A DNA stretch of 64,000 bases from assembly GCA_963769315.1 (NCBI GenBank), contig CAVYLG010000005.1, positions 6,075-70,074 on the forward strand, written 5' to 3'. Below are positions 10,617 through 51,400 of this stretch, in pieces; the stretch's first letter is position 1; each line of letters opens with the position of its first letter. The stretch is from Candidatus Omnitrophota bacterium. Its GTDB lineage: Bacteria > Omnitrophota > Gorgyraeia > Zapsychrales > Fredricksoniimonadaceae. The notes under the pieces are model-generated. The model saw only the letters and a program-made list of their open reading frames with translations. It did not search any database and was not told where the DNA came from. The translations under genes were made by a program, and so were the position numbers.

Positions 10617-10628
10617 AATTTTTTCTAT

Positions 10629-18331: not shown

Positions 18332-18679
18332 TTATAAGCGATTATATTTGGTATGTCTCCCTTTAGCTTTGTGTATGGGGTATTTTAGGGCGTTTTTCTT
18401 CATTTTATTGACCATTGCGCTTTTTAAATCTATTCCTAAATTATCTGCCAATTCAAAAAGATACATAGCCACATCAGCAAGTTCGTCCGAAATTTCGTTT
18501 TTGCAATTTTTCCCATGCTGTTCAACTTCTTTTAGTGATTTCCATTGAAAATGCTCTAACACTTCTGAAGCTTCCAATACCAAAGAAAGTGCCACGTCCT
18601 TATGATTATGAAATTGTTTCCAGTCGCGTTCATCCCTAAATTTCTTTATCTTTTCAGTAATTGTTTTAATTTCATTCAT
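18332..18679 (-). CDS. MazG-like all-alpha nucleotide pyrophosphohydrolase (copy 1)
   Basis: FRDERDWKQFHNHKDVALSLVLEASEVLEHFQW ... SDELADVAMYLFELADNLGIDL is the typical small dimeric MazG-like NTP-PPase pattern. Paralog at 38603..38950. Confidence 0.8.
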   Translation of the reverse strand: MNEIKTITEKIKKFRDERDWKQFHNHKDVALSLVLEASEVLEHFQWKSLKEVEQHGKNCKNEISDELADVAMYLFELADNLGIDLKSAMVNKMKKNALKYPIHKAKGRHTKYNRL

Positions 18680-18732
18680 TTAAACTCTCCCCACCGCTTC
18701 CCTATACTTTGGGGGGTGTAATACTTTGACAT
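18676..18732 (-). CDS. 18-codon mini-ORF, a collapsed (start fused to end) copy of the 39581..40330 nuclease gene, overlapping the MazG-like start by ATGA
   Basis: My translation gives MSKYYTPQSIGKRWGEFK*. The first 8 codons equal the start of 39581..40330 (MSKYYTPQ) and the following codons match its end (Y-R-E-A-A-G-K-R region). Confidence 0.3.
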   Translation of the reverse strand: MSKYYTPQSIGKRWGEFK

Positions 18733-18739
18733 TAGGTCA

Positions 18740-18768
18740 ATTCTACGATAAACGACGGAATATTTAAA
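18740..18768 (-). promoter_or_regulatory. Sigma70-like promoter TTTAAA-N17-TAGAAT placed 7 nt from the ATG (leaderless-type)
   Basis: -10 box at 18740-18745, -35 box at 18763-18768, spacer 17 nt. The same cassette lies upstream of 38950 and 40330. Confidence 0.5.
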
Positions 18769-32810: not shown

Positions 32811-33509
32811 TTATTCTATTTTATCACGTTTATTTAAATTGTGCCTTGCACACATTAGCTGAATATTCTCAGCTGTAATGGATGCCCCTCCTTTAGAAAA
32901 TGGGATATCATGATCGAAATGTAGGTTATCATTTGAGCCACAAACCACACACTTACCTTTATCCCGCTTCCAAACAGCCAATTTGACATCGGTGGGAATA
33001 AGACGGTTGTGCTCTAAATCTTTTGGGGGTGCTTCTCCTTTTTTATTATCATTTTCATCGGTAATTTTTAGTCTGAATTTAAAAACCTTCCTTTTGCCTT
33101 CAACCTGTTCCCAAGCATCAACAAGTTTAAAAATTCCAGAATATGTCCAGATACCATCTCGAATCTTTTCATAAACCTTAACAGGTTCTGCTGAGGCCTT
33201 TTTGGTTTTATACGCTTCGGCAGCCTTGAAAAACTTACCATTTTCAGTTAGGCCACCGAATGGTGTAAGCCTAGGTTGATCAATATCCTTTGGATTTTTC
33301 TTTAATCCTTTATATTTAGGAACATCATGTCCCTCATAAATTAAAACCTTCCCATTTTCCTCTACCCTATCTGCATAAGGAGCATTCATTCTCAAACTCA
33401 TTAATATGACGCTCAGCCCACCTTTTAAACGAAAATTCATACCTCGCTGAAGGTTCACTCCTTCATGTTGACACATTGTTAAATATGAAATAATATCTCC
33501 AGGCTTCAC
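32811..33509 (-). CDS. HNH endonuclease with an N-terminal ~170-aa putative (modified-)DNA reader domain; type IV restriction-like
   Basis: The C-terminal HNH motif reads CVVCGSNDNLHFDHDIPFSKGGASITAENIQLMCARHNLNKRDK. The N-terminal domain (GMNFRLKGGLSVILMS...VLIYEGHD) resembles reader domains fused to HNH in modification-dependent nucleases. The start overlaps the upstream stop as ATGA. Confidence 0.75.
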   Translation of the reverse strand: MKPGDIISYLTMCQHEGVNLQRGMNFRLKGGLSVILMSLRMNAPYADRVEENGKVLIYEGHDVPKYKGLKKNPKDIDQPRLTPFGGLTENGKFFKAAEAYKTKKASAEPVKVYEKIRDGIWTYSGIFKLVDAWEQVEGKRKVFKFRLKITDENDNKKGEAPPKDLEHNRLIPTDVKLAVWKRDKGKCVVCGSNDNLHFDHDIPFSKGGASITAENIQLMCARHNLNKRDKIE

Positions 33510-35893
33510 TGAATAACCTTTATAAATTCAGCAACAACCATAAACCCGCCTTCTTCAGAATTAGGGATAACAATGGGCTTATAAGATGGATTTAATGGTA
33601 GAAGACTGATTTCTTCATGAACAAACGTATCGTCTTCGCCTTGGCGCTTTTTACTGGTATATTTCTTAACGGTATACTTGCCTCCAGTATCTGGATCCAT
33701 AATGCTATTATGTTGGACCAAAACGATCTTATTATTGCGGCTTCCTACAACCGGTGTACGGAATAGGCAATAGCTTCCATCGGCAATTAACGGCTCCATT
33801 GATTTACCAATAACCTTTGTGACAAACATGTTACGGTTTAAGCGGCCAACGCCTTCGGCTTTGATCCAGCCTTCTATTTCGGCTGAAGCCCCTTCACCAA
33901 AATTACCGCAGGCGGCGGCTAATGTATAAACCGGTAAATATTCTGTATATTCGAGGTTTTTGGGGATAGATTCATGGATTTTAATAGAGCTTTCATCTTC
34001 CTTGGATATAACATCGGAAAACATAAGCGTTTTATCCTTCAAGGGATCATAGGCCATTCGGGATTGAAAATATTCTTTAGTATCTTTATCCATGAAATAA
34101 ACAAAAACTCCCTTATGAGCACGGGAAAGCAATACCCGATAAACATTTTTTAAATGATTCACCAGGTCTTTGTTATTTCTGGTTACTTGGGTATCGAACG
34201 ATTTATCCGGAACGCTTTCCCAAGTTTGTTTTGACTTGTTCCAAACCAGATCATTACCGAAAATTATGCCTATATAATCAAATTCAAACCCTTGGGCTGT
34301 ATAAACTGTGCCGACTTGCTCCATTCCACAGGGATCAGTCGCCCATTTCCAAAACTCCTTCTTATTTTCCCAGGGCATTTGAAAATCTCCGATCTTCACA
34401 TCATTAACTAAGGTGCCATCAGGATTTGGCTCACTCCAAGCCCAGCAAAAGCCGGCAACCAGCCTTGAAGAATTGAGTCTTAATGCGTTCTTCTCTATGA
34501 TGGCCTTCCTTAAATCTTGGGGAGAATCAAAGATCTTAAATTCCATCTTGGGGTCAAATCTTGCCATATCGATATCCCGTATCTCCAAGACTTTATCAAG
34601 CCACTGAAGAAAGGCATCTGAGCCAGAACAACGAAATTGTGTTTTTAGCTCAAATTCAGCGATATTTGATCCCTCAACACCGATTTTCTTTGCAGTTTCC
34701 TTAATTAGAGCCACACTGCCGATTTCTTTGGGCCTTACAATCTGGTATTCATCCAGGAAAAATATAGATAATTTTGCAGGCCTTATAAGATCCTCGACCT
34801 GAGGATTCTTTGACCTAAATTGATTAGGAACGGCAAAATCATTGCTATTGGCCCTTATCCTATGGGCTTCATCACAGATCAAGACATCAAGTTCATTTTC
34901 TCCAAGTTGGGTAAAATTAAAAAAGAACTTAAATAAATTGGAAGCCCTTCTGCCTACAATCTTTCGCAAGGTATTAGTAAATGCAGATGAGCCTGTGGCA
35001 TGATAAACAACCTTCCCCTGCCTCATAAGTTCACCCATTACCTCTAAAGCAATGACTGATTTGCCGGTACCTGGCCCGCCTTTTACGATAACAATGGACT
35101 TTTGGCCTATCTTTGACAGATGGGTCGCCTTATGCATTATTGCGTTATAGGCCGCTATTTGGTCATCTATTAGATTAAAGATCTGCTGCTTATGGATCAT
35201 CTCCCCCGTATGATCGAGCAACCTTTTGGAAGGCCTGGCCGGACTTACTATAAAGCGGTTAAAAACCTCAAAACCGGGATCGTTCTTTAGTCTTTCTTTT
35301 AAATACTGGCCTAGATCCTGGACGTCTTCTTTACTAAATAAGGGGAATGTTTTAATAATCTTGCTGAATTTGGGCAGACGTAATACATCTATGCCTTGGC
35401 GGGAATAGTTATGGCAATAAGCGCAGGAATTTAATTCTGTCGGAGGGTCATCTTGAAATACTTTAAGAAAATCCAGGAGATCATAATGGTATCCTTGCAC
35501 CTGAAGGCAAGGATGAGGTACTTCCTTCTTCTCTAGAAAATCAATAATTACATTTCCTTCATTTTCGCAATCATGGACATGGTCATTAGACCATTGCTTT
35601 AACTCTATTAATACAACACTATCCCTGTCCCTTAAATCCTTCCCAAATATCAATACATCAATTCTTCTTGTTGAATATGGCAGTTCATATTCGATGATTA
35701 TCTTATTCTCTTGCAGACCGGACAAGGTGAATGAATTATTGAGGACATTTAAGGATTGATTCCAGGCCCTATACTCTGACTCTTGCGGGGTCCTGTGATA
35801 ATGCTTTGAATAGGCAAATTTGAGCTTATCCGCTATACGGTTTTGGAGGACATCGTTGTTAAAGGCGGCTATGGTGTCATCATATAGCTTCAT
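33506..35893 (-). CDS. DUF2075 nuclease/P-loop NTPase fused to a LexA/UmuD-type S24 peptidase domain (copy 2)
   Basis: The PD-(D/E)xK-like core reads IIIEYELP..RRIDVLIF..VVLIELKQW. Walker A is VKGGPGTGKS and Walker B is VLICDEAHR. SF1-like motifs are VYTAQGFEFDYIGIIF and VYRVLLSRAHKG. The S24 domain has LPVYTLAAACGNFGEG, GKSMEPLIADGSYCLF and GGKYTVKKY. Confidence 0.85.
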   Translation of the reverse strand: MKLYDDTIAAFNNDVLQNRIADKLKFAYSKHYHRTPQESEYRAWNQSLNVLNNSFTLSGLQENKIIIEYELPYSTRRIDVLIFGKDLRDRDSVVLIELKQWSNDHVHDCENEGNVIIDFLEKKEVPHPCLQVQGYHYDLLDFLKVFQDDPPTELNSCAYCHNYSRQGIDVLRLPKFSKIIKTFPLFSKEDVQDLGQYLKERLKNDPGFEVFNRFIVSPARPSKRLLDHTGEMIHKQQIFNLIDDQIAAYNAIMHKATHLSKIGQKSIVIVKGGPGTGKSVIALEVMGELMRQGKVVYHATGSSAFTNTLRKIVGRRASNLFKFFFNFTQLGENELDVLICDEAHRIRANSNDFAVPNQFRSKNPQVEDLIRPAKLSIFFLDEYQIVRPKEIGSVALIKETAKKIGVEGSNIAEFELKTQFRCSGSDAFLQWLDKVLEIRDIDMARFDPKMEFKIFDSPQDLRKAIIEKNALRLNSSRLVAGFCWAWSEPNPDGTLVNDVKIGDFQMPWENKKEFWKWATDPCGMEQVGTVYTAQGFEFDYIGIIFGNDLVWNKSKQTWESVPDKSFDTQVTRNNKDLVNHLKNVYRVLLSRAHKGVFVYFMDKDTKEYFQSRMAYDPLKDKTLMFSDVISKEDESSIKIHESIPKNLEYTEYLPVYTLAAACGNFGEGASAEIEGWIKAEGVGRLNRNMFVTKVIGKSMEPLIADGSYCLFRTPVVGSRNNKIVLVQHNSIMDPDTGGKYTVKKYTSKKRQGEDDTFVHEEISLLPLNPSYKPIVIPNSEEGGFMVVAEFIKVIQ

Positions 35894-35991
35894 TGGGGGG
35901 TTTCTCTATAAGGGCTCAGGATGACAATAACTGATATTAGGTAAGATTACTGCTTTTAAAGCTTTACGGCAAGCTTTTTAATACAGAGAGA

Positions 35992-36900
35992 CTACGCAGG
36001 CAGCCAGGAAAGCAGCCATTGCTTTTCATGATGAGATAATGAAGAGTCCTTGACGCTATGCGGGGATGGCCAGCAGATAAAATTACAGCCTAAATTGCGG
36101 CCTAAAAGATAGGCATTATATAAATACTCGTAAGTCCATCTGACCCATTGATGGGTTTTGTAGAATTCTGACACCCTTTCCTTCCGGCCTGCTTGAGCTA
36201 AAGCTTCATTCATAATGTTGACGTTATCGTCCATGGGATTTAAGACTTCAGAGAAGACTTCAACGGGTTCAAGGGGTGCTATTTCCTGTAGAACTTCTTC
36301 TGCAACCTTCAAGGAATGAAAAGGCATTACCGGTGCTATGGCCACATAGACCGGAATGCCCCTTTGAGCAGCTTGGGCAAGCATTTTAAGCCTTCTGGAA
36401 GGTGCCGAGGCTTTGGGTTCCAAAATCCTTGCTAATTTATCATCCAAATACGGTAAAGAAGTCCCCAGCAGTACTTGATCCGGATATCGTTCTAAAATGT
36501 CAAAATCACGTTCTACTAAAGCTGATCGCGTCTGTATTCGGATAGTATGGCCGGCTTCCAAAACAAGCTGTAATATTTGCCGGGTTATTTTAAGCTTGGC
36601 TTCAATAGGACTATAACAATCTGTTAAAAAACTTAAAAGAACCATTCCCCTACCCCACTTGGTAGCATTTCTATGAGGATCAAAAGTTTTAAGTTCAGCC
36701 TCCAGGCGGGTAATGAGATTTTCTTTAGGAAAAATATATTTCCCCCAATCCCGTTGGCTATGGCCATTATTAATGAATTTGACACCGGGCATGGCCGGGC
36801 AATAGCAGTGTTTGCAGCCGTGTTCACAGCCGATATAGGGATTAATCACCCAGTCGCCGAGTTTCTTTTTCCAGAGTTTGGATTCTGAAATGATGGCCAT
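35992..36900 (-). CDS. Radical SAM protein of the SplB/COG1533 (DNA-photolyase-like) type
   Basis: INPYIGCEHGCKHCYC (CxxxCxxC). Collinear COG1533-like motifs follow: LSFLTDCYSPIE, IRIQTRSALVERDFDIL, ILEPKASAPSRRLKML and GIPVYVAIAPVMP. Confidence 0.7.
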   Translation of the reverse strand: MAIISESKLWKKKLGDWVINPYIGCEHGCKHCYCPAMPGVKFINNGHSQRDWGKYIFPKENLITRLEAELKTFDPHRNATKWGRGMVLLSFLTDCYSPIEAKLKITRQILQLVLEAGHTIRIQTRSALVERDFDILERYPDQVLLGTSLPYLDDKLARILEPKASAPSRRLKMLAQAAQRGIPVYVAIAPVMPFHSLKVAEEVLQEIAPLEPVEVFSEVLNPMDDNVNIMNEALAQAGRKERVSEFYKTHQWVRWTYEYLYNAYLLGRNLGCNFICWPSPHSVKDSSLSHHEKQWLLSWLPA

Positions 36901-36909
36901 ATTGTTATT

Positions 36910-37725
36910 CTAAAACAACTCCCATTGACCTTGTTCATCTTTTTTAGATATTTTCTGCCAATAATCAAGCCCTCTAGGATGCTTGGAAGCAAATAATAAA
37001 AAATACATTGGGGCGTTCTTGGTGTTCTTGACAGGTATATCGCGATGCTCGACAGTCCCATAGTCAAGGTCTCGAATACGCGACTTATATATTTCAACAA
37101 TATCTTTCGCTTCTTTCCCATCCAATTTAGATATATCAAAATCAGTCCCTAAAAATCGCGCTAGTTTAGAACTTTTTCCTTGACCGCGATATATCTCCAA
37201 ATTTCTTTTGAGATCCATTCCATGCTGAATATTAATCAATAAATCAACACCATTAGAAACCTTAGATAATGCTTTAATAGTCTCAAAATGAATATCAATA
37301 TCCGTCGGATCAATAAATACCAGATTTAAATTACCTGAAGGTATTTGACGAATGACCTCATTAATACATTCATTTGAATCATTTTGAATATGTATAATTG
37401 ATGCGCTTTTAGGAGAATTAATGCATCGCTTTTTTAATGCTTCCATCAAGACAGGAGTTTCTTCAACGAAAATATATTTACTAAAATCATGCTGAAGAGC
37501 AATTAACGGAGACCCATCTTCTTCAAGTCCTGTTTTTTCGATTAAACACCGTCCTGGCCCTGCAAAAAGGTCTACGAAGGTCAGCCGCCCGGGCCATTTC
37601 TTTCCCATACCGGTGGTAAAGATTTTAGCGTATTCTCTGAGATAATAATGTTTTCTTTTGATCCAGATACCACTTGGACGGACAGCTAATCCATCAATTT
37701 TTGAAAGGACTATTTCTTTAGGCAT
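36910..37725 (-). CDS. tcmP: Three-Cys-motif partner protein (TcmP-like) with an MTase-like DLFAGPG motif
   Basis: GIWIKRKHYYLREYAKIF...LTFVDLFAGPGR matches my recollection of the TcmP family N-terminus. It ends 9 nt before the CxxxCxxC protein gene. Confidence 0.55.
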   Translation of the reverse strand: MPKEIVLSKIDGLAVRPSGIWIKRKHYYLREYAKIFTTGMGKKWPGRLTFVDLFAGPGRCLIEKTGLEEDGSPLIALQHDFSKYIFVEETPVLMEALKKRCINSPKSASIIHIQNDSNECINEVIRQIPSGNLNLVFIDPTDIDIHFETIKALSKVSNGVDLLINIQHGMDLKRNLEIYRGQGKSSKLARFLGTDFDISKLDGKEAKDIVEIYKSRIRDLDYGTVEHRDIPVKNTKNAPMYFLLFASKHPRGLDYWQKISKKDEQGQWELF

Positions 37726-37817
37726 GAGCTCCCCCTTGTTTGAAAAGTGAATGCAATTGCGCCTTGGGGGAAAGGCATTTTTATATAATATCCTTGAGGG
37801 AAGGATGTTTAAAAGAA

Positions 37818-38264
37818 TTATACTTTAAACGCAGAAATGGTCAATCGTGATTTTTTATGGTCATCAGCATATTGTATGGCTAATTTTTTAGATTCTTCTA
37901 TGTTATTTCCTTTAGCAACCAGATAACCATACATGCCTAAAACAGTTGAATCTTTTTTGATAAAGAAATTATAACTATTTACTTTAAATGGCTGAGTATC
38001 CTTTTTTAACGTTATTGTACCGCCAACATCAGGATATGAATAAATAGCTACTCTGCTTGCAGTATCATAAATTTCTTTTAACTCTTCAATATCTATATCT
38101 TGATACCCCTGTTTATGAAGCTCATTGACAATTTGATTTAAAGATACTGCTATTATTTTAGGATTAAACCATTTTTGTCTATAATCATCTTGTGCTTTTT
38201 TAATTAAATTATTAGTTAATCTCCAGCCTTGCCTACTCAAAATGCTTTTTTCTTGTTTTGTCAT
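37818..38264 (-). CDS. Hypothetical protein (148 aa)
   Basis: Intact ORF 92 nt upstream of the TcmP-like gene. No motif recognised. Confidence 0.45.
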   Translation of the reverse strand: MTKQEKSILSRQGWRLTNNLIKKAQDDYRQKWFNPKIIAVSLNQIVNELHKQGYQDIDIEELKEIYDTASRVAIYSYPDVGGTITLKKDTQPFKVNSYNFFIKKDSTVLGMYGYLVAKGNNIEESKKLAIQYADDHKKSRLTISAFKV

Positions 38265-38465
38265 AAAAATCCCCCAAATTTATTTATAAGGGATCTTTGA
38301 TCAAATCAAATAAAAAGTCAAATAAATTATTCAGTGTTCTGGATTCCCCCTAAAGGGGGCCTATCGGCCGCTTTCGCGGGAATGACAAGCGAAACCCCCT
38401 TCGCGCCAGAGAAAAACCACCGTTGGATTCGACTCAAGGGTTGGCAGAAAAAACACTTAACTTAT

Positions 38466-38580
38466 CTCACCCCCACCTAACCTCCCCCTTCAAGGGGGAG
38501 GAATTAATATTTTTCCCCATCAAGGGGGAGGAATATAATGGTAAGAGATTGCTTCGTCGCTTCGCTCCTCGCAATGACAC
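38466..38580. repeat. Intergenic repeat mosaic (families D and A)
   Basis: ctcacccccacctaacctcccccttcaagggggaggaat (38466-38503) recurs at 44528-44566. ttccccatcaagggggaggaat lies at 38513-38534. gagattgcttcgtcgcttcgctcctcgcaatgacac lies at 38545-38580. Confidence 0.8.
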
Positions 38581-38602
38581 TGCGGAGGTTCTCTCTGACA
38601 TT

Positions 38603-38950
38603 CTATAAGCGATTATATTTGGTATGCCTCCCTTTAGCTTTGTGTATGGGGTATTTTAGGGCGTTTTTCTTCATTTTATTGGCCATGGCCTTGGGGAGGT
38701 CTATTTTTAGATTATCGGCCAATTCGAATAAATACATGGCTACATCGGCTAATTCATCGGAGAGTTCGTCTTTGTTGTTTTTGCCGTGCTCTTCGACTTC
38801 TTTCGGGGATTTCCATTGGAAATGCTCTAATACTTCTGTCGCTTCTAACACTAAGGACAGGGCTAGGTCTTTGTGGTTATGGAACTGTTTCCAGTCGCGG
38901 GCGTCGCGGAAGGCCTTGATCTTTGCGGTTAGCTGTTTTATTTCGGACAT
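38603..38950 (-). CDS. MazG-like all-alpha nucleotide pyrophosphohydrolase (copy 2)
   Basis: 115 aa. By my count 17 of 115 positions differ from 18332..18679. Confidence 0.8.
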   Translation of the reverse strand: MSEIKQLTAKIKAFRDARDWKQFHNHKDLALSLVLEATEVLEHFQWKSPKEVEEHGKNNKDELSDELADVAMYLFELADNLKIDLPKAMANKMKKNALKYPIHKAKGRHTKYNRL

Positions 38951-39580: not shown

Positions 39581-40330
39581 TTATCTCTTCCCCGCCGCTT
39601 CCCTATACTGACAAAACTGACAATCTTCCCCTGATTCCGGCATTTGGTCCGACTGCAAACAAGCATAAAGATCTTTAATTGCTCCATCCACCCAAGAATC
39701 ATTACCTTCATAAGGGATCAAACTGATCTCAAAATCCAGCCTGTTCTCAAAAGCTTCCCTATCAGTCAAACCATTGCAATACACAAAATAACCTTGGGTC
39801 TGCACTTTAAAGCCATTCTTGCGAAACAACCACTGATATATTTCCATCTGGCGCCTATAACCGAGCTGCCAGTCAGCATCAATCCCCATCTCACCATCCT
39901 TGGACGTGGCTTTATAATCCACGATGATCAATTCCTTTTGACTGTTCTGCCAGACATCATCTACCCCTCCGGTTAAAAGCAGATTAGTGCCCGGATAGGC
40001 ATAGGTGATGCCTCCGCTTAAAGCATTGCGCCATTCGTCCATTTGCGGATGGTTAAAGGGTATCGCATCAAGGCCGGCTTCCTTCATCAAAGGATGGGCT
40101 TGGGCCTTGGCCCTATATATATCAAACTCTTTCTTTAAAAGCTTATCTACGGCTGAATTAAGGTTAAAAGGAAAGCCCGGAGGCTGCGGGATGCCTAAAC
40201 GCCTGTCTAAATAGAAGCATTTGGGACAATTGAGGAATAGATCAATCTTTGAGCGGCTTATACGGAAAGGCTTGGCGGAGTCCGGGTCGTAAATATTACG
40301 TGTACGTTGGGGGGTGTAATATTTGGACAT
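39581..40330 (-). CDS. PD-(D/E)XK nuclease, Cas4/RecB-like with Cys cluster
   Basis: N-terminal Cys residues lie in LNCPKCFYLD. The core is GGVDDVW...LIIVDYKAT with YRRQMEIYQWL (QxxxY). C-terminal Cys residues lie in CLQS...CQFCQY. Confidence 0.75.
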   Translation of the reverse strand: MSKYYTPQRTRNIYDPDSAKPFRISRSKIDLFLNCPKCFYLDRRLGIPQPPGFPFNLNSAVDKLLKKEFDIYRAKAQAHPLMKEAGLDAIPFNHPQMDEWRNALSGGITYAYPGTNLLLTGGVDDVWQNSQKELIIVDYKATSKDGEMGIDADWQLGYRRQMEIYQWLFRKNGFKVQTQGYFVYCNGLTDREAFENRLDFEISLIPYEGNDSWVDGAIKDLYACLQSDQMPESGEDCQFCQYREAAGKR

Positions 40331-40336
40331 TACGTA

Positions 40337-40365
40337 ATTCTAACTTAGGTTGGCCGAGCAAGCAA
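40337..40365 (-). promoter_or_regulatory. Sigma70-like promoter TTGCTT-N17-TAGAAT placed 6 nt from the ATG (leaderless-type)
   Basis: -10 box at 40337-40342, -35 box at 40360-40365, ATG at 40328-40330. Confidence 0.45.
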
Positions 40366-40476
40366 TAGGGAATATTTGTACGCCAAAGGGCGGGTTTGGA
40401 CAAGGTGAAATTACGCAGGCAGCCAGGAAAACGGGCATTTCTTTTGCAGATCAGGGGGAAAAGAGAAAATTATCTC

Positions 40477-40746
40477 TTATGCAAGCTGACCGGTTAAATA
40501 TTTATGCAGAACACTTGCAACCAGAGTCTGATAGGGCATTCCCTCTCTAATGGCTTTCGATTTCAAATTAAAAAAATCCCGTTTCGTCAATCTGATGTTA
40601 ATACGGGCGTCTTTTCTTAAAGTTTCACGGGCGGATTCTTTAAGGCGAAGTATTTCCTTATCCCGGTTTTTAACCGACTTCCATTCGCCACGCTCAACCG
40701 ATGCTATTAGTTCTTTTTCTTCTTTTTTAGTCATTGTTGTTCTCAT
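40477..40746 (-). CDS. brnA: BrnA-like (CopG/RHH) antitoxin
   Basis: LIASVERGEWKSV...INIRLTKRDFFNLKSKAIREGMPYQTLVASVLHKYLTG. The start overlaps the toxin gene stop. Confidence 0.65.
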   Translation of the reverse strand: MRTTMTKKEEKELIASVERGEWKSVKNRDKEILRLKESARETLRKDARINIRLTKRDFFNLKSKAIREGMPYQTLVASVLHKYLTGQLA

Positions 40747-41021
40747 TAGTTGTCTCCTAGATATTCTTTGGTAAATTCCCTGCTTGGGAAAATCGTTATT
40801 AAATGTATAACTTTTTCATCCTCAATACACGGAACAGCATAGGCGTAACCATTGACATTAACAACAAGGATCCTTTGGTGCGCATATTTAATCTTATTAG
40901 GATGCTCAATATCATCTAATAAAAATCCCTCTTCAATTTTTATGACAATATCCTCAAAACAAATGCCTCTTTCTTTTTCCAACGACCTGCTTTTTTTATC
41001 GTCCCAGTCAAAAGGTTTCAT
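40746..41021 (-). CDS. brnT: BrnT-like toxin
   Basis: FDWDDKKSRSLEKERGICFEDIV...LITIFPSREFTKEY. Confidence 0.6.
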   Translation of the reverse strand: MKPFDWDDKKSRSLEKERGICFEDIVIKIEEGFLLDDIEHPNKIKYAHQRILVVNVNGYAYAVPCIEDEKVIHLITIFPSREFTKEYLGDN

Positions 41022-41102
41022 ATCACTCCATTTAAAGTATAGTCTATTGTGTGCCTATTGTCAATACTCCTTAAGATACAATAGAAAGGGTTATTTCATT
41101 TA

Positions 41103-41145
41103 GGGAGAATTTATGTGAGATCCTTGGGGGAAGGATTGATTAAGA
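41103..41145. repeat. 43-bp perfect direct repeat, left copy, flanking the HigB/A-like cassette
   Basis: gggagaatttatgtgagatccttgggggaaggattgattaaga is identical (43/43) to 41941-41983. It contains the family C hairpin atccttgggggaaggat. Confidence 0.9.
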
Positions 41146-41249
41146 TTACTGCTTTTAAGGCGTTACGGCAAGCATTTTGTAATGGAAGGATGTTCTTTAA
41201 GAGATCCCTGCCTGCCGGCAGGCAGGCTTCGCTCAGGATGATAGTTATA

Positions 41250-41537
41250 TTAAGAAATTGCTTCTAAAACTGCTTTTGGATTGGTGTTAGCGATCTTTAA
41301 AAGCACTTGGGCAGGACCTTCCGGTACACAACGCCCCTGTTCCCAATTCTGTAATGTATTAACACTGATATGGAAGGCCGAGGCAAATTGATTTTGAGAC
41401 AACCCCAACTGAAGACGGATTTTACGGACATTAGCAGGGGTATACCGGAAAACTCGCGAAGGCTTTCGCTGGCCGCGCATATATTCCCCGGCATGTTTGA
41501 TACTTTCAATTAATTCATTAAATTGTTTATCTTTCAT
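41250..41537 (-). CDS. XRE-type HTH antitoxin (HigA/COG2944-like)
   Basis: VRKIRLQLGLSQNQFASAFHISVNTLQNWEQGRCVPEGPAQVLLKI. It overlaps the toxin gene stop by 4 nt. Confidence 0.75.
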   Translation of the reverse strand: MKDKQFNELIESIKHAGEYMRGQRKPSRVFRYTPANVRKIRLQLGLSQNQFASAFHISVNTLQNWEQGRCVPEGPAQVLLKIANTNPKAVLEAIS

Positions 41538-41857
41538 CTTAAATACTCCTTTGTCATTTTAGCTAATATTTTTAACTGTTCCTTGCTCAAATCTTCCCGC
41601 TCACTCTTGGGATATATATAAATCATCAAGATTTCCTCATGATCCAACCAAAGGTAATAAATGATCCGAACTCCTCCGCTTTTACCTTTATCTTTAAATC
41701 CCCAACGTAATTTTCTAAGCCCATGCCCGTGCGGGATAATATCCCCTTTGCGCGGGTTTTTGGTAAGCTCCTCTTGTATCTTTCGGTATTCATCATCATT
41801 CAAATTTTCTACTACCCATTTGGTAAAATAAGAAAATTCTATAAATTGCATATTCAT
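41534..41857 (-). CDS. RelE/HigB-superfamily toxin (COG4737-like)
   Basis: FIEFSYFTKW...GDIIPHGHGLRKLRWGFKDKGKSGGVRIIYY...IYPKSEREDLSKEQ. Confidence 0.7.
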   Translation of the reverse strand: MNMQFIEFSYFTKWVVENLNDDEYRKIQEELTKNPRKGDIIPHGHGLRKLRWGFKDKGKSGGVRIIYYLWLDHEEILMIYIYPKSEREDLSKEQLKILAKMTKEYLR

Positions 41858-41940
41858 CCTTCACGGTTAGAGTATACGCTATTAGCGTATGGTTGTCAAG
41901 TTAATGAAATTAACTTGATGCTTGGGGGAAGCTGGATTGT

Positions 41941-41983
41941 GGGAGAATTTATGTGAGATCCTTGGGGGAAGGATTGATTAAGA
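41941..41983. repeat. 43-bp perfect direct repeat, right copy
   Basis: Identical to 41103-41145. Confidence 0.9.
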
Positions 41984-42182
41984 AAATTATACTTGAGCAT
42001 TTTGTTGACGTCAACAAAATGGTTTTGGCTCCCTTGAGATTTTAAAAGCCATTGCGAAGCGAAACCCCCGCCGCACCAGAGAAAAACCAGCGTTGGGTTC
42101 ATCTGAAAGGGTTGGTAAAAAAATGACACTTATTGAACTCCCCTAGCCCCTCTTTAAAAAAAGAGGGGAATAATATGCTTAT

Positions 42183-42243
42183 CTCTCCCCCACCGCTTCC
42201 CTATACGTTGGGGGGTGTAATATTTGGATATTACGTAATTCTA
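42183..42243 (-). pseudogene. Second collapsed (start fused to end) copy of the 39581..40330 nuclease gene with its -10 box; ATG mutated to ATA
   Basis: The minus strand reads TAGAATTACGTAATATCCAAATATTACACCCCCCAACGTATAGGGAAGCGGTGGGGGAGAG. The fusion junction (..GTATAGGG..) is the same as at 18676..18732. Confidence 0.6.
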
Positions 42244-42346
42244 ACTTAGGTTTGCCGAGCAAGCAATAGGGAATATTTTTACGTCAAATGGCGGGAAAGA
42301 TAAATAGAATATTTGGAAGAGGGTTGTTCCTGGGATTGATAAGAGC

Positions 42347-42374
42347 TTGACAGGGTAAAGCTAAATGATATAAT
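42347..42374 (+). promoter_or_regulatory. Consensus sigma70 promoter TTGACA-N16-TGaTATAAT
   Basis: TTGACA at 42347-42352 and TATAAT at 42369-42374, preceded by TG at 42366-42367 (extended -10). Confidence 0.65.
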
Positions 42375-42380
42375 TTAATT

Positions 42381-42499
42381 GCATCACGATGAGAGGTCAA
42401 CCAAAAGGGTGAGTCCTGCGGCTATGCCTCTCGTTTGAAATCAATCACGATGAGAGGTCAACCAAAGGGGTGAGTCCCGTGGCTATGCCTCTCTTTTTT
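42381..42499 (+). ncRNA. Candidate ~120-nt small RNA made of two tandem 61-nt structured repeats, ending in a stem plus U-tract
   Basis: Unit 1 spans 42383-42443 and unit 2 spans 42444-42499. Each has an outer stem GAGAGG..CCUCUC enclosing two small hairpins. Unit 2 ends in cctctctttttt. No ORF. The 3' end lies 6 nt from the stop of the convergent NYN gene. Confidence 0.4.
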
Positions 42500-42505
42500 A
42501 TTACC

Positions 42506-42988
42506 TTAATACGCTAATTCCTCTCTTTGTTCATTCAAAAAAGTTATATCTGTTCCAAATTTCTTTAAAAGTGAAGAATATTTATTTTGGTTTGGAATCA
42601 GCAATCTTTCCAACTTACTTTTCATTTTTAAATATTCAATCAGGCAATAGAAATCCCCATCCCCTGTCACGATCACCGCTTTATGATAATTACCCCACTC
42701 GATCATAGCATGAAGCACTAGTTCTGCGTCAACATTACCCTTCACTTTGCCAGCTTTAAGATCAAGTGTTGGCTTGAACACCAAAATATAGCCTTGTTGT
42801 TGCAAGCTTGTGTATAGCGTTTGTTGTGTAGCAATATAACCAATAAATATAAACGCTTTAGTGACCTTATATTTATGCTTAAGATATATGCGAAAATGTT
42901 TGTAATCAAGCCGCCAACCTTGATCCCTGATGGACAGATTTAAATTTTGGCTATCGATAAAAGCATAATTGTTGACAAATTCCCCCAT
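42506..42988 (-). CDS. NYN/LabA-like (PIN-like) ribonuclease domain protein
   Basis: YAFIDSQNLN...GNVDAELVLHAMIE...AVIVTGDGDFYCLIEYL. The start is set at ATG 42986-42988, with AGGAG 7 nt upstream. Confidence 0.75.
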   Translation of the reverse strand: MGEFVNNYAFIDSQNLNLSIRDQGWRLDYKHFRIYLKHKYKVTKAFIFIGYIATQQTLYTSLQQQGYILVFKPTLDLKAGKVKGNVDAELVLHAMIEWGNYHKAVIVTGDGDFYCLIEYLKMKSKLERLLIPNQNKYSSLLKKFGTDITFLNEQREELAY

Positions 42989-43316
42989 GGAAACGCTCCT
43001 TGTGATGGTGCTTGAGCGCTGGGGGTGGCGCAGGTTTAAGATCAACTACTTTCAGTTTGGAGGTAACAGGCATACCGTGAAAGCTGGATATCTTCAATAA
43101 TTCGTTGAGTACCTGAACCTATGGAGACCATTTTGTCCACTTGGACGAAATGGCCTATGATTCTTTGTTAATAAAGGAAATTAATAATAAAAAGCGGCGA
43201 GGGATGTTGCGGTCAGTGTGCTTCTTTACTTATTTTCCATCTTTACGTTGTGAAGTCAAATAAAATGTGTAGTACAATATACCTTAAGATTCTTCGCTGC
43301 GCTCAGAATGACGGTT

Positions 43317-44160
43317 TTATTTTCCATACGGTCGGGACCAATACTTCAATTTTATCTTCCTTACCTTTGTCCCCTTCCTAAAATGATCAGCAAGCTGACT
43401 TATGATATACCAGAATTCTTTTTCTGTCAGATCTTGTTTCATGGCATTGACCATTCTGGATGTGATCACCAATCTTCTTGGATCATTGGGTATCCAATGG
43501 TCAAAAGTCAAATACCAAGGGCTATGCTCGTTAAACAAATCCAGTTCCATGCCCGTATAATAACAAACAAATCCGTACTTTCGCAGATAGTCAAAGACGG
43601 CTTCTTTTGTCTTTGGGCTATAGCGTTCCGCGATCAATCGTTTAGCGACAGTGGAGCACCTTGGACAGAATTTATGCCATCTTGATGGGGTCGGCCGCCC
43701 GCATATATAACAACGCCTGCCTGTCTTAGAGGTACAAGATAATCTATACCAATAAATGAGCCTTCTTTTTTTGACCTTAGTATGTTTCCTTCGATGATCA
43801 TCCAGTTGAAGGACATAATACCTAAATTCCTTTTGGGAAAGATCCTGCTTCATATCATTCACCAGCGCCGCACAGATCACTATTTTACGAGGATCACCCG
43901 GGATCCAATGGTCGAAATCACAATACCAAGGGCTCTGTATCATCCTCTAATTCCAAAGCCACATCGGAGTAGTTACATCTATATCCGTACTTATGGATAT
44001 AACCCAGGACGCCTTTTCGGGCCTTTGGAGAGAATTTCTTCCTATACATCCGGCGTATTGTTTTGAAACAGTTACGGCAATAAGGAGACCGGGGAGAAAA
44101 TACTTTTTTGCCGCAGACACGACATTTTGTGTAAAGCCTGTAGGTTAAGAGGGGTTTCAT
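43317..44160 (-). pseudogene. Two tandem Zn-ribbon + HNH-like modules, fused in frame to each other; the first module is frame-shifted
   Basis: Module A is CRVCGKK..CRNC...(frameshift near 43925-43945)...SPWYCDFDHWIPGDPRKIVICAALVNDMKQDL. Module B is CYICGRP..CPRC...SPWYLTFDHWIPNDPRRLVITSRMVNAMKQDL. There is no stop between A and B. Confidence 0.5.
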
Positions 44161-44198
44161 TTGAGAGATTGCTTTGCTGCTTTGGGTAAAATTGGCCC

Positions 44199-44504
44199 TT
44201 AATGCATCTTATCAACAAATACAATGCTTAATGTAATACTTATATAAACGATACCGGCAAAAAATGCAATGAGGCTCCATTTATTTATTTGGGAGACCTT
44301 CCCTACTCTCAAGAGAACGTACCCAATGAGCACATTAGCTAGTGCCCACAAAACATTGACCATTGGAGATGACAATCCTTTGCCCGGCGGAATTGCAAAA
44401 GGAGAAGGGAAACTGTCACCGGATATCCCGTGTACGAAATGTGGAATAGCGTTAGTTAAAAAACTACCGGCGAAAAAGCAAGCTAGATAGTGATACCATT
44501 TCAT
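44199..44504 (-). CDS. Small membrane protein (101 aa, 3 TM helices)
   Basis: Hydrophobic profile only. Confidence 0.5.
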   Translation of the reverse strand: MKWYHYLACFFAGSFLTNAIPHFVHGISGDSFPSPFAIPPGKGLSSPMVNVLWALANVLIGYVLLRVGKVSQINKWSLIAFFAGIVYISITLSIVFVDKMH

Positions 44505-44622
44505 AAGGCCTCCTAGACAGTGGGGATCTCACCCCCACCTAACCTCCCCCGTCAAGGGGGAAGAATATGACTTAACTGAACTCCCCTAACCCCTCTTTAA
44601 TTATGTGGACACAATTGCTTTC

Positions 44623-45123
44623 TTAATTTATTATTTTATTTTTCATAAGCATGTGTTGAATCAGGGCTTCGTTAGATTGGTGTAATCGTCTGGAAGTCTC
44701 CCTGGCAATATTAAGAATCAGTAAGCCGAATAATTCTTTATCTGTTTCATAGATGTTTAATAATTTACTTGGTTCCAAGACAATTAATTCAGTTGGTCTT
44801 ACAACCAATGCGTTTGAGGAATGGGTTAGAATTCCAATAACCGAAGTCTCCCCAAAGCAGTCACCTTCCTTAAAAGAAATCAGCTCCAAAAACAGGCTAT
44901 TATCTTCAAATATCATCTTCACTTCGCCCTGTTTGATGATATAAATGTTGCTAAGAGCTTCCCCCCTTTTATATATGAACTCGCCTTTTTCGTACTTGAT
45001 GGTCTTTAATAATTTACAAATCTTCTCAAGTTGTGAGTTGCTTAATCCGTCAAAGACAGTTATTTTCTTTAAAAACGGCCAGACTTCTTCAACATTTAAT
45101 ATCGGGGAGTATGTTTTATCCAT
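44623..45123 (-). CDS. Stand-alone cyclic-nucleotide-binding (cNMP/Crp-like) domain protein, no HTH
   Basis: FDGLSNSQLEKICKLLKTIKYEKGEFIYKRGE...IYIIKQGEVKM...GDCFGETSVIG. Confidence 0.75.
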   Translation of the reverse strand: MDKTYSPILNVEEVWPFLKKITVFDGLSNSQLEKICKLLKTIKYEKGEFIYKRGEALSNIYIIKQGEVKMIFEDNSLFLELISFKEGDCFGETSVIGILTHSSNALVVRPTELIVLEPSKLLNIYETDKELFGLLILNIARETSRRLHQSNEALIQHMLMKNKIIN

Positions 45124-47652: not shown

Positions 47653-48421
47653 TTATCCAACCTGAAAGAATCTCTCCCCGAACTTCTGTGATGAAAGTTC
47701 TGCGCCAACGCGTCCATTTCCGACGGCAAAATCGTAATGCCCCCTAAATCCACATGACTCCAATCCTCGTGGCGTATGGCATTCTGGTTCTTTCCACGAA
47801 TAACAACCCTTGCGTTTCTTGATCAATCCATTAAGGAAGCTATAATCTTTTCTCATGTTAAGAATCGTCTGCCCCCTATATCTAACGACGCTTTCGGCGT
47901 CCTTTATAACTAAGATATACTCGGGATGTTTCTTTTGAAATACCAGCATCTCATCTCTATATTGAGCTTCCGCTTTGAAGGCCACCTTACCCAATTCTCG
48001 GCTAATCTCTCCTTGGCCAATACTCATCATTTTGTTTACGAGCAGCATGCCATTTTAAATCTAATTCGCGATATTCCGGCCAGTCCTTATATCCCGTAGC
48101 TTCTTCGACAGATTCAACAACAAGGACCGGTAATCGGTACGATCCGTAACCAATAGCCATCAATTGGTGACCGAAATCATCTTTTTGGTAGCTGAGTGTC
48201 TTATACTGAGCAAACCTTGGCACATCATCGGGGTTACCTAAATTGATCGTTCTCGACTGAAGAACATAAACCTGTCCGTCATTCTTAGAGGATGCCAACT
48301 CTATTTGCTGAACGCCGTAAATTCCTTCGATCTTGGCTGCTGTTTCTCCAAACTGCGAAAGGATCCCCCGCACTCGATCATCGAGTTCATTCTTCTCCAA
48401 CACGTGCGCCTTTTTTATCAT
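47653..48421 (-). pseudogene. Frame-shifted continuation of 48387..52082 (rest of the PPDK_N-like ATP-binding domain and beyond)
   Basis: 48002..48421 continues the PEP-utilising/PPDK_N-like domain after a frame change at an A6 run (48411-48416). 47653..48048 lies in yet another frame. Confidence 0.55.
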
Positions 48422-51400
48422 AAGCGATCACGCCACCGGTTTCGTTGCCTTCCTGACCGCGCATTTGATAATGAATCAACATTTTATTCGAGTCATGAGT
48501 GTCCGACGTAACGAACATCCCAAAAACATCCACATCGATCTGCTCCATAATGACCGTATTCATCGCGTTGGGATCAAAATCAACGATCTTCAACGCCTTT
48601 CGGTATTCTTGAACACGATAACGATCCCTTGCCATAGCCACAATCTCCTCGTAAGCTTTTTCAACGCTTTTCGGCTCCTGTTCCTCAAGCCAATCTTCTT
48701 CTCCACCTTCTTTCTTAGAAATTTCTGCTTCAGTCAAAACTGAAATATTCCCATAACTATCAAATATTCCCGAATACGAGTGCTTTTTACCCTCTTCAGG
48801 GTGAGCACTTCGTACGATCACCGGCCTCTTCAAGCTATCAAATGCTTGACGCAGTTGATCATCAATAACAAGCTTCCCACTTCCGTTACTTTTTATTACA
48901 AAAAATTTTGGAACATTAAAGCCAGCTTGTTTTAACCAAATAAGTTTTTCTGGCTTTTCTCCTAAATTCTCTGGGATAGCTCCTTGAATATTATCGGGGG
49001 AAATGATTTTTTGCTCAGAATTCATCGCCCCATCCGCAGGCAAAACCTTCATAATTTCAGTGGCTAGTGCATCATAATTTCGCTTTGATGGCTCAGGAAG
49101 CAAAACGTTGATACCAAATATGTCTGATGCTTTTATTATTCTATCTGCTTTATCTTGATCCATTTGAAGCTCGGCATAATTATCATTGAAACGATCATTT
49201 AACCTTCCAGTATTTAATTTAAAAGATTGGATATCCCTATCAAATGAAGAATTAATGATAATGCTGACAGGAATAAAACCAAGTTTAATATCTGCTGCTG
49301 AAGCATATACTTCTGGCTTACCTTTGTAAGCCCGCCTCGGAGGTTCAGGGTAATAAGAAGCGCTAGCCTGCAAAACTCCACCGCTATCAAAGTATGCTAT
49401 AACACCACCATCTGCCCGAATAGAAAATCGAGGATCTTTAATTAATCTGCTAGCAATATTAGACTTTCCTGTACCAGGCATCCCTGTAATTAAAATATTT
49501 TTATTCGTTCTATGGTCATAAATTAAATTCCCATGAATCGAAAACATATCGAAGCCTTTTATAATATCCAAAGCCCGTCTCACTGCAGGAATGAGGCGGT
49601 AACCAACCCTTTCCTGTCTCTTGAGTTCAGTTACTTCAAACATGTTTTCCTCTGGAGTTAGGTACAAAAAAATCTCATTGGGGTCAGTAATGGGAGTATC
49701 CAACATTTCCACATCAGCCTTCATCGCCCCATCCGCTTTCCCTGCCGATTGTTGAGTTAACTCGTTGGCATTAAGCTCCATTTTCTGAGACAATAATTTA
49801 TCAACATCGTTTGCCAACCAACTCTTAAGTGTTGGGCCAAACCCAGGGATTTTGAATTCAGCTTTAAGAAATTCCAGAAATTCTTTCTTCTTCTGAAAGG
49901 TTCTATCCTTAATTTTACTTTTAATGTCCGCAATAAGACTAGCCACATTAAATCCTGCATTGTTGCGCTTAATTTCATCGCTAACCCGCTGCTTGATAAC
50001 ATCTTCCCAATCAATTTCACCAATGCGACTCCATTTTATATTTTCTGCATCCGCTAAAGGTTTGGAATCAATATCGCCCGTTGGCACCACCACGCGGTCA
50101 GCCTGCTTCGCCCTTGGTGTCTGATTTCTACTGCCATCAACTGCAGAGGGGGCTATTGTATATTCATATAACGTACAAGCCTCCACATTGGGGTTTGAGG
50201 TTATTGAAAATGTTCTGTGTCTTAATAAACTTAAACCATCAAATTGAACAGGATTGTATTTGTTTTGACGCAATATGATCAATTTAGTTTCTTTTTTAAG
50301 ACCACCTCTCGCCTTACGCATCTGCTCACTAAATTTTTGAATAAATTCCTGAGCGTTATGAGTGGGCTCAGGATAATAAAGATAGACAACATCATATCTA
50401 CTGAAGTCGACGTCGCTGGAAAATATATCTCCTTTTTTTAAATTAACTTTTGATACTGTCTGTTTTAACGATGATAAGTCCTCTGGCGCAAGAATTTTTT
50501 GGAACTCGCTCTTACCCAAATTTCTTAAAAAAAGATCGCTTATAAGTTGTCCTATAGAAAAAGGCTTCTCTGCCTGTTCCATACCCTCAACGGAAAAACC
50601 CCGCGCTGCCAGTCTATAAGCAAACATCCCGTCACCTGAGCCAAAATCAAAAACTTTGGCACCTTCTTTGAGATCTGCAAAATTCACAAATTCATCCAAA
50701 ACCTCGGGAAGGGTTTCTTCAAATTTGCCATATTCTACAGGCATAGACTCGGTTAATTCCACCACATTGCTCCCCGGTGTTTGTTTGGCATATCCCATGC
50801 CTAGGTAAATTTGTATATATAGATTTTGTATAATTCTTTCAACGACAGGATTCCTCGCAGATGTCATAGCCATATCCGTTACAACATCTGTTAAACGTTT
50901 TTCAACATCAGCAATCGCTGCCCTATCTACTTTCGCTGGCCCCACAGCAATAATGGCTGCATCCATATATTCACCTATCACTCCCCCCGAAAAATATTTC
51001 CTCGGGATGCCTTCATTGGTAATAGGATCGGGCTCTTCTTTGATATAGTTATAAACACCTTTTTTGAAGGCTTGGAGGTATTGGCTGTAGATCATTTCGA
51101 CATCACTGGTTGTTCTTTTAGAGATTGCTTCGTCAGTCGCTACGCTCCTTCCTCGCAATGACACAGTGGGCTTAACACCTTCAATTTTATTTTTATCCGC
51201 ATAAACTTTATTGAGGATGCTGTCCTTGATTTTCTTTTTATACCAAGTGGCCAAAATAAGCGAATAAAAGACCTGGCGCAGTTGGGCGAAATTTTTGCCT
51301 TCGTTGACTTCCTTGTTTAAAGCGGGGATGACGATTTCGCGAACTATTTGGGAACCGATAGCATTGATACCTCCAAAACTCCCCCTAGCCCCCTCTTTAT

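Follow-up and report, generated by a model that had tools for sequence, protein, structure and literature searches.

In the 64,000-nucleotide (nt) stretch of Candidatus Omnitrophota DNA analysed here (contig CAVYLG010000005.1, positions 6,075 to 70,074 of the forward strand; hereafter the window), a minus-strand gene at 33506..35893 encodes a protein of 795 amino acids (aa) in which a PD-(D/E)xK-like nuclease, a DUF2075 superfamily 1B (SF1B) helicase and a LexA-type S24 autopeptidase are fused. The gene is classified as coding for an effector of the Nhi-like kind that carries a new regulatory module. Its S24 domain is tentatively read as a safety off-switch built into a defence enzyme and triggered by RecA filaments on single-stranded DNA (ssDNA; RecA* in the following), a reading whose probability is put somewhat below even. 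The idea of a general cassette that is shared with many other enzymes is more interesting and still unproven.

Architecture of the fusion protein

A sequence-only reading of this DNA had described two adjoining open reading frames (ORFs), and both are present on the minus strand, at 33506..35893 (795 aa) and 32811..33509 (232 aa). Two of the three parts that it assigned to the larger protein, DUF2075 and S24, score above their Pfam cut-offs; the nuclease part rests on invariant residues and sub-threshold matches. The helicase domain (residues 265-602; 34088..35101) corresponds to SLFN-g3_helicase/DUF2075 (PF09848, E 1.6e-82) over the full length of the Pfam model, and its Walker A (GGPGTGKS, K278) and Walker B (DEAH; D341, E342) motifs are invariant in 65 homologues, which confirms the proposed Schlafen-like NTPase. 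An AlphaFold2 (AF2) model based on an alignment of 65 homologues reaches a mean predicted local distance difference test score (pLDDT) of 81 and consists of three bodies; a predicted disordered linker (residues 616-635, 33989..34048, pLDDT <50) leads from the helicase to a beta-rich C-terminal domain with a pLDDT of ~85. Structural matches of the helicase core in the PDB (Foldseek) are the SF1B helicases SLFN11, RecD2, Dda, Upf1 and nsp13, the best being SLFN11 (7zel, E 1.4e-11), with RecD2 (3gpl) and Dda (3upu) also found. The N-terminal domain is a probable PD-(D/E)xK nuclease: in its core (residues ~60-165; 35399..35716) E68, D79, E97-x-K99 and Q100 are invariant both in the 65 homologues and in 17 diverse sequences, these residues are carried by beta-strands 64-69, 78-85 and 91-102 of the AF2 model in a beta-beta-beta topology, and the sub-threshold profile matches (NERD in 10 of the 17 members, PDDEXK_9 and Endonuc_Holl once each) all belong to the PD-(D/E)xK superfamily. 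DUF2075 candidates are already among the PADLOC models, and those matching the 795-aa protein cover parts of it only, namely PDC-S41 (E 1.3e-22, partial), AbiO and Nhi (E 9.3e-13, spanning only positions 162-370 of 470), the latter two falling on the helicase region.

The S24 domain (residues ~650-795; 33509..33946) scores 35.4 bits (gathering cut-off 23.3) for Peptidase_S24 (PF00717) at residues 682-780, and Foldseek aligns it with the catalytic domain of LexA (PDB 1jhe_A; E 5.2e-6, target-normalised template modelling score 0.68, 25% identity). PDB sequence searches using single sequences and profile hidden Markov models, with either the full protein or the S24 domain, returned LexA only marginally (E 0.06-0.3), so the fold call relies on Pfam and Foldseek. 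Ser698 (33800-33802, in GKSMEP) and Lys743 (33665-33667, in TVKK) are invariant in 113 of 113 full-length homologues and at 22 of 22 distant genome loci, down to 33% overall identity. The putative scissile bond Cys662-Gly663 (33905-33910) precedes Ser698 by 36 residues, the same spacing from Cys/Ala-Gly to Ser as in the sequences of LexA and UmuD; the codon coordinates previously given for these residues were arithmetically right. In the tail profile, 'FVAKVvGKSMEP' pairs with LexA 'FLLRVSGMSMKD' and 'EIvLsPlNkeFkdIvl' with LexA 'KVELLPENSEFKPIVV'. A MAFFT alignment with E. coli LexA places Ser698 on Ser119 (GMSM), Lys743 on Lys156 (TVKR) and, with a hyphen marking the predicted cut, LPVYTLAAAC-G opposite LPLVGRVAA-G. 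Among the 113 homologues, the P1 residue of the predicted site is Ala in 100 and Cys in 13, and P1' is Gly in 82 (Ala-Gly 69, Cys-Gly 13); Ala-Thr is counted at 31 less an overlap, and Ala-Thr and Ala-Ser variants together at 44. The domain is thus complete in fold, dyad and scissile site, as had been claimed, and RecA*-type autoproteolysis can reasonably be inferred from it. RecA-ssDNA filaments stimulate S24 self-cleavage. In distant fusions conservation is higher in the S24 domain than in the helicase core (identities of 62% vs 39% at locus L023, 57% vs 36% at L043 and 53% vs 35% at L056), which would make sense for a domain obliged to fit a universal partner, for instance RecA.

The resemblance to LexA, UmuD and lambda CI (MEROPS family S24) covers the fold, the Ser-Lys dyad, an (Ala/Cys)-Gly pair located ~36 residues N-terminal of the Ser, the 'LLP.N..(F/Y).PI' strand and the C-terminal position after a flexible linker. 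The cargo differs, being a nuclease-helicase of ~660 aa or a restriction enzyme instead of a DNA-binding helix-turn-helix domain or the UmuD arm, and the domain itself departs from E. coli LexA by two insertions and by the existence of an Ala-Thr/Ala-Ser subclade. Members of this subclade (P0018-P0057 and others) carry a 2-residue insertion before a conserved GW and may be slow- or non-cleaving variants or have an altered specificity.

The gene occurs twice in the window, as had been noted. Copy 1 (15825..18212, minus strand; tblastn and blastn) is 96.7% identical in aa and 94.1% in nt to copy 2, the gene at 33506..35893, and the duplicated DNA is essentially the gene alone. Both copies are considered to be under purifying selection, since they differ by 109 synonymous vs 27 nonsynonymous codon changes and all key residues are retained in both. 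That the fusion arose as an artefact of assembly or frameshift is ruled out by the two copies, the unbroken ORF, the purifying selection and the existence of >110 related clusters. As cluster counts indicate, the fusion is neither rare nor unique: in Omnitrophota, Elusimicrobiota, Nitrospira and Syntrophaceae, proteins combining PF00717 and PF09848 fall into >110 clusters (identity >=54%), and this S24 subtype also caps many restriction enzymes. More distant fusions come from Bacteroidales, among them the cultured Parabacteroides segnis BX2 and Bacteroidales F22, as well as from Bacillota, Verrucomicrobia and a metagenome-assembled genome (MAG) of Enterobacteriaceae. Orthologues of ~615 aa that lack the S24 domain (60-67% identity) are interleaved with the fusions and occur often in archaea, DPANN among them. 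Such fusion proteins already bear labels in databases, as in one protein name from JGI, 'DUF2075 family protein/SOS-response transcriptional repressor LexA'. The sequence-only reading was aware of no description of the fusion, and full-text literature searches, which were not exhaustive, likewise gave no mention of DUF2075 with S24, of restriction or defence nucleases that carry S24/LexA-like domains, or of the pairing of DUF2075 with the MazG-like partner described below; a 2025 review of restriction-modification (R-M) biology mentions neither such domains on these nucleases nor the MazG-DUF2075 pair. Two variants were also observed: P0273 (747 aa) is a DUF2075-S24 protein with a GIY-YIG N-terminal nuclease instead of PD-(D/E)xK, and in Halomonas sp. 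PA16-9 (L147, NZ_CP040452.1 1652241-1654627) a frameshift interrupts the fusion gene shortly ahead of the S24 domain.

Among characterised proteins, Nhi of Staphylococcus epidermidis (SERP2475) and the 'Nhi-like' nuclease-helicases, which protect against phage (bioRxiv 776245, Bari et al.; bioRxiv 2022.05.11.491447, Millman et al.), share the order of domains, in which a nuclease of PD-(D/E)xK type, only probable in the 795-aa protein, precedes a DUF2075 SF1B helicase and the C-terminal domain varies, and reside in defence islands. Nhi nevertheless has no significant full-length similarity to the 795-aa protein, its PADLOC match is partial, its C-terminus is glyoxalase/bleomycin-resistance-like where the 795-aa protein has the S24 autopeptidase, and no operon partner has been reported for it comparable to the conserved MazG/DCTPP1-like partner of this family. 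The helicase domain of human SLFN11 (Schlafen group 3) is homologous to the core of the 795-aa protein, whereas its N-terminus is a Schlafen AlbA_2 RNase core, distinct from the PD-(D/E)xK-like domain here, and it carries no S24 domain. DNA damage brings SLFN11 to the ssDNA of stressed forks, which may be viewed as a conceptual parallel to a bacterial DUF2075 enzyme coupled to ssDNA and RecA.

The same S24 subtype on other enzymes

Searching with the S24-domain profile alone retrieved 2,387 representative clusters (517 at E<=1e-30), in which the domain almost always forms the extreme C-terminus of proteins of 150 to 1,878 aa. The architectures of 74 representatives of >=300 aa were tallied with Pfam. 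Alongside the cassette, ResIII was found 14 times, DUF2075 and Type_ISP_C 11 times each, Eco57I 5 times, DEAD, MZB and N6_Mtase 4 times each, RE_AlwI, HNH_4 and SWI2_SNF2 3 times each, Methylase_S and GIY-YIG twice each, and RE_LlaJI, RE_endonuc, MmeI_Mtase, DUF3427 and SLFN_AlbA_2 once each. Fragments also carry the cassette, including C-terminal pieces of HsdR (T1RH-like_C) and fusions with DpnI_C, Mrr_cat and TnsA-like domains. Checks of single proteins bore these architectures out. PF00717 is matched by 72 of the 74 cassette proteins, the Ser and Lys are invariant in all 74, and 68 of them (92%) have (A/C)-G as their scissile pair. Cleavage at this position is predicted to create a new C-terminal triplet that reads AAA in 45 proteins, AAC in 18, IAA in 4 and VAA in 3. 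The longest protein, P0278 (1878 aa), ends in the same cassette after DEAD, Helicase_C, MZB and REase_MTES_1575 domains.

All of these hosts are DNA-targeting enzymes, and several are constitutively active R-M enzymes that carry the methylase in the same chain. Judged by this distribution, the S24 subtype is a promiscuous mobile C-terminal cassette of DNA-cleaving immunity enzymes. The further proposal that it is a general, previously unrecognised module that couples DNA-cleaving immunity to RecA*, so that the enzymes would self-destruct upon damage to the host chromosome, is possible but on balance doubtful.

Candidate functions of the S24 domain

According to the reading tentatively favoured here, the 795-aa protein would be an Nhi-like defence effector made of a single polypeptide and normally encoded in an operon with a DCTPP1-like MazG dCTP pyrophosphatase. 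RecA-ssDNA filaments, formed upon DNA damage or during recombinational repair, would cause the cassette to cut its own Cys662-Gly663 bond. This cut would detach the dimerising S24 domain and leave a nuclease-helicase whose C-terminus reads ...LAAAC; most relatives would then end in ...AAA or ...VAA, a LexA/ssrA-like tail. The enzyme would be disabled by the loss of dimerisation, which would be needed for two-strand cleavage, and/or by ClpXP-type degradation. Restriction would in this way be alleviated upon damage by a device inside the enzyme itself, and the host chromosome would be spared.

Several precedents speak for this reading. DNA damage leads to proteolysis of HsdR, which alleviates Type I restriction (PMC11109961, PMC12707154), and in P. 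aeruginosa the loss of HsdR is Lon-dependent (bioRxiv 2024.10.21.619520). When LexA is cleaved, according to PMC10584840 (citing Neher 2003), its dimerisation domain is split off and ClpX signals that had been latent become exposed, upon which the N-terminal fragment is degraded. Type I alleviation, by ClpXP acting on EcoKI HsdR or by Lon in P. aeruginosa, resembles the proposed mechanism as a proteolytic, post-translational shut-off in the presence of damaged or under-modified host DNA; there, however, a separate host protease recognises stalled complexes, whereas here an autopeptidase would reside inside the enzyme and, by analogy, be coupled to RecA*.

The sequence-only reading had left it open whether autoproteolysis would switch the effector on or off, and the wider distribution of the cassette argues that off is the likelier direction. 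The same cassette caps classical R-M enzymes, which need damping and not activation, and since these hosts have to deal with incoming DNA ahead of any damage signal, an activating role is hard to generalise, whereas a safety off-switch would suit every one of them. In such an activating scheme, the S24 domain would hold the nuclease-helicase inactive through dimerisation or occlusion, until RecA filaments, or phage recombinase or ssDNA filaments arising in phage replication, triggered the cut that frees an active enzyme of ~660 aa, which would destroy the DNA of the phage and perhaps of the host. The predicted product 1-662 is indeed close in size and sequence to the S24-less orthologues of ~615 aa, which are presumably active, a disordered linker lies ahead of the S24 domain, and Nhi targets phage replication intermediates, a stage rich in ssDNA. 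This scheme is nonetheless regarded as unlikely, if with an appreciable probability, because the cassette also sits on Type IIG/ISP enzymes with a fused methylase and on HsdR-like enzymes, which must hit incoming double-stranded DNA before RecA* arises and have to keep methylating at all times; what is known of such enzymes is their alleviation, not their induction, by damage, and a nuclease activated during the SOS response would attack the host while its chromosome is gapped.

Several observations weigh against the off-switch. Profile searches gave no significant match for the nuclease domain, either among domain profiles or among PDB sequences. In the AF2 model, the scissile segment 658-665 forms a helix instead of a strand docked in the active site. 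The argument for a degradation signal consists in the resemblance of 3-residue tails only, and the S24-less orthologues of ~615 aa, which resemble the predicted cleavage product, fit the activation model equally well, since the cut would set free an equivalent of these free-standing enzymes. The presence of defence genes in the PADLOC tally of neighbours is a raw count without a background rate. Moreover, 44 of the 113 close homologues have Ala-Thr or Ala-Ser in place of Ala-Gly with the dyad kept, and these proteins may be cleaved poorly or not at all.

The last observation lends itself to a structural or targeting role, in which the S24 domain would dimerise two nuclease heads for a double-strand break or tether the enzyme to RecA-coated ssDNA, with cleavage being slow or irrelevant. 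The C-terminal domain of LexA is its dimerisation domain, UmuD'2 binds RecA filaments, and many of the Type IIS, IIG and ISP enzymes that host the cassette require a pair of molecules for cleavage of both strands. If the domain were purely structural, however, an invariant dyad and an (A/C)-G site would be superfluous; the Ser and Lys are retained without exception in all three samples (113/113, 22/22 and 74/74) and the pair in 92% of the cassette proteins of other architectures, and this role is judged improbable.

It is also conceivable, at a very low probability, that the MazG-like protein and the nuclease-helicase-S24 protein have no part in immunity and serve as SOS-regulated housekeeping of repair or replication stress, in the manner of UmuD processing or of SLFN11 at stressed forks. 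S24 domains are classical components of the SOS response, the DUF2075 helicase is a Schlafen group-3 domain, and one family locus (L083) sits among housekeeping genes. The patchy spread over bacteria and archaea, reminiscent of horizontal gene transfer, and the duplication within one island speak against this view, as do the neighbouring toxin-antitoxin (TA) modules, SIR2, abortive infection (Abi), methylase and Dsr1 genes, the antiphage function of Nhi as the closest characterised architecture, and the restriction enzymes among the other cassette hosts.

Operon partner, genomic context and implications

The neighbourhoods of the family were compared at 80 genome loci and at 22 close metagenomic S24-positive loci, with a pair counted as an operon if both genes lie on the same strand with a gap of <60 nt. 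The only gene that recurs across the 80 genome loci encodes a 115-aa MazG-like protein. A recurrent MazG gene had been raised as a question before, and the gene was found directly upstream on the same strand at 21 of the 22 close loci, at 15 of 20 distant S24-positive loci and at 38 of 58 S24-less loci, with gaps of 0-54 nt in the genome loci. The true conserved partner of DUF2075, with or without S24, is therefore the MazG-like pyrophosphatase in a two-gene operon, and not the HNH protein encoded next to copy 2. In the window, the partner of copy 1 (18332..18679, minus strand; PF12643, E 5.9e-19) occupies the canonical position directly upstream, and that of copy 2 (38603..38950, minus strand; PF12643, E 4e-18), a DCTPP1/RS21-C6-type nucleoside triphosphate (NTP) pyrophosphohydrolase, is displaced 2.7 kb upstream; the two paralogues share 82% nt identity (38599-38899 segment). 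No PADLOC model matches the partner. Like the all-alpha, MazG-type dCTP pyrophosphatase DCTPP1/RS21-C6, with which it aligns over its full length (6sqw, E 8e-20), it keeps the acidic metal-binding motifs ExxExxE and ExAD (>=90% conserved in 64 sequences); unlike DCTPP1, it is a 115-aa bacterial protein. This resemblance suggests that removal of dCTP or modified dCTP may accompany DNA degradation. Nucleotide-depleting defences, such as dCTP deaminase and dGTPase, are known. Variants of the arrangement were observed as well: at Halomonas L147 and at locus L022 of the Enterobacteriaceae MAG the order is inverted, with the MazG-like gene downstream of the fusion, and at L022, L031 and L068 a gene of ~530 aa with tetratricopeptide repeat (TPR)-like features, common to all three, is found upstream in place of MazG.

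The 232-aa neighbour of copy 2 (32811..33509, minus strand) starts with GTG, and its overlap with the stop of the fusion gene, described before as ATGA, is the 4-nt GTGA. The earlier assignment of an HNH C-terminus behind a reader-type N-terminal domain is borne out, with HNH at 26.1 bits against a cut-off of 21.4 and an N-terminal SRA fold (Foldseek: SUVH5 SRA, E 1.9e-7, template modelling score 0.62-0.68; also UHRF1, MspJI and ScoMcrA), even though the Pfam score of SAD_SRA (27.6 bits) lies below its gathering cut-off of 30.7. With a SRA reader and a C-terminal HNH, the protein resembles Type IV endonucleases such as the SRA and HNH part of ScoMcrA or, for the reader, MspJI; it differs as a minimal two-domain member of a very large, highly conserved family of >7,900 standalone proteins of ~230 aa in bacterial phyla and archaea.

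Its proposed membership in the same module did not hold: none of the 80 genome loci has a SRA-HNH gene beside the fusion, none lies beside copy 1, and adjacency was seen at only 4 of the 22 close metagenomic loci, once on the other side of the operon; the tally for distant loci is 0 of 22. The opposite extreme, that the two are never associated, is ruled out by the recurrence in close Omnitrophota relatives. In GCA_041649995.1, MazG is followed by DUF2075-S24 (63% identity) and then by SRA-HNH (73% identity), the same 4-nt overlap between fusion and SRA-HNH is found at L085/L086, and SRA-HNH lies directly downstream of the fusion at L087 and L098 and upstream of MazG at L108. From this distribution, SRA-HNH is probably an independent modification-dependent (Type IV-like) restriction enzyme, restricted in lineage, that has repeatedly landed beside the operon. 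A three-gene system in which the helicase loads or translocates, the HNH protein cuts and the S24 domain gates both would agree with the GTGA overlap in the window and with the same gene order at L084/L105, L085/L086, L087 and L098, together with the HNH gene beside MazG at L108 (63-87% identity, two arrangements). Such a system is highly unlikely given that HNH is lacking at 80 of 80 genome loci and 18 of 22 close metagenomic loci as well as at copy 1 in the same window, that the HNH family stands alone in many phyla, and that the downstream slot otherwise holds a second DUF2075 gene, TcmP or nothing. The putative dCTP role of MazG and the SRA-HNH neighbour might, speculatively, reflect a common theme of cytosine modification.

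The second DUF2075 gene is represented in the window by gene 'b' downstream of copy 1 (13405..15383, minus strand), a divergent sequence split over three frames (161 + 141 + 353 aa) with PF09848 on two of the fragments. It is a probable pseudogene, or the split is a sequencing error; intact collinear orthologues exist at L088 and L089 (93% identity), L083, L001, L101 and others. The tandem of DUF2075-S24 and DUF2075b recurs at about 10 loci, at one of which (L083) a Macro-domain gene comes next.

The placement of the gene in a defence island is supported by the TA modules, SIR2, Abi, methylase and Dsr1 genes around the family loci. Between MazG and copy 2, a minus-strand block (35992..38264) is inserted that comprises a radical S-adenosylmethionine (rSAM) gene (35992..36900), TcmP (36910..37725) and a 148-aa ORF (37818..38264). 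The rSAM protein has the CxxxCxxC motif and is similar to PA0069 and 'mobile pair B', and its partner TcmP corresponds to TIGR04474 (NCBIfam) and to the PADLOC candidate PDC-M41A. This block does not occur at this position at copy 1 or in related loci and is probably a separate candidate defence module; TcmP, with or without rSAM, also lies just downstream of DUF2075 genes at L102, L103 and L122, a repeated co-location with the family. A scan for promoters and terminators in the region 32.4-39.4 kb performed no better than on shuffled sequence.

Further features of the island were noted. On the minus strand at 9048..12245, a ThsA/Dsr-like SIR2 protein (PF13289; PADLOC ThsA 1e-32, Dsr2) adjoins a HATPase_c_3 (MORC/sacsin-like) ATPase, and these genes bordering copy 1 are a possible two-gene defence pair. 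The minus-strand region 39581..45123 encodes a Cas4-like PD-(D/E)xK nuclease (39581..40330), a RelE toxin (41534..41857), a NYN RNase (42506..43045) and a cyclic nucleotide monophosphate (cNMP)-binding protein (44623..45123). Families of intergenic repeats of ~40-90 nt, recognised by sequence identity (88-100%), lie at junctions between defence modules, at 35942-35982, 41141-41183, 38539-38580, 61403-61444, 8806-8843, 38464-38504, 44526-44566, 18685-18745, 42183-42243, 40303-40394 and 42204-42295. One repeat falls into the 98-nt gap upstream of the DUF2075-S24 start and another just upstream of MazG copy 1, and one family forms a GC-rich hairpin of about -18 kcal/mol. These repeats may be elements of the repetitive extragenic palindrome (REP) or miniature inverted-repeat transposable element (MITE) kind, or common terminators or promoters marking the seams of insertions. 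Finally, three large ORFs at 4820..8524 (plus strand; 1234 aa), 48387..52082 (minus strand; 1231 aa) and 59364..62114 (minus strand; 916 aa) have ~74%-identical DNA segments in common and give weak matches to methyltransferases and PADLOC mad2; they constitute an uncharacterised paralogous family.

The two-gene unit of a DCTPP1-like pyrophosphatase and an Nhi-like nuclease-helicase is unreported and widespread in bacteria and archaea, and it hints at a cooperation of nucleotide-pool editing with DNA degradation in defence. How DNA-cutting immunity spares its own host while DNA is damaged and repaired is a question of long standing, with mechanisms established only for a small number of Type I enzymes, by way of ClpXP or Lon. 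A self-cleaving domain that responds to RecA would, if the off-switch proves true, be a simple and portable answer and would link the SOS response to immunity at the level of protein instead of transcription. Should the switch turn the enzyme on instead, it would represent a new kind of infection or damage sensor. The off-switch idea applies to thousands of enzymes beyond this gene, and the general cassette, if real, would confer intrinsic, portable restriction alleviation on Nhi-like, HsdR-like, Type ISP/IIG, IIS, DpnI, Mrr and other enzymes.

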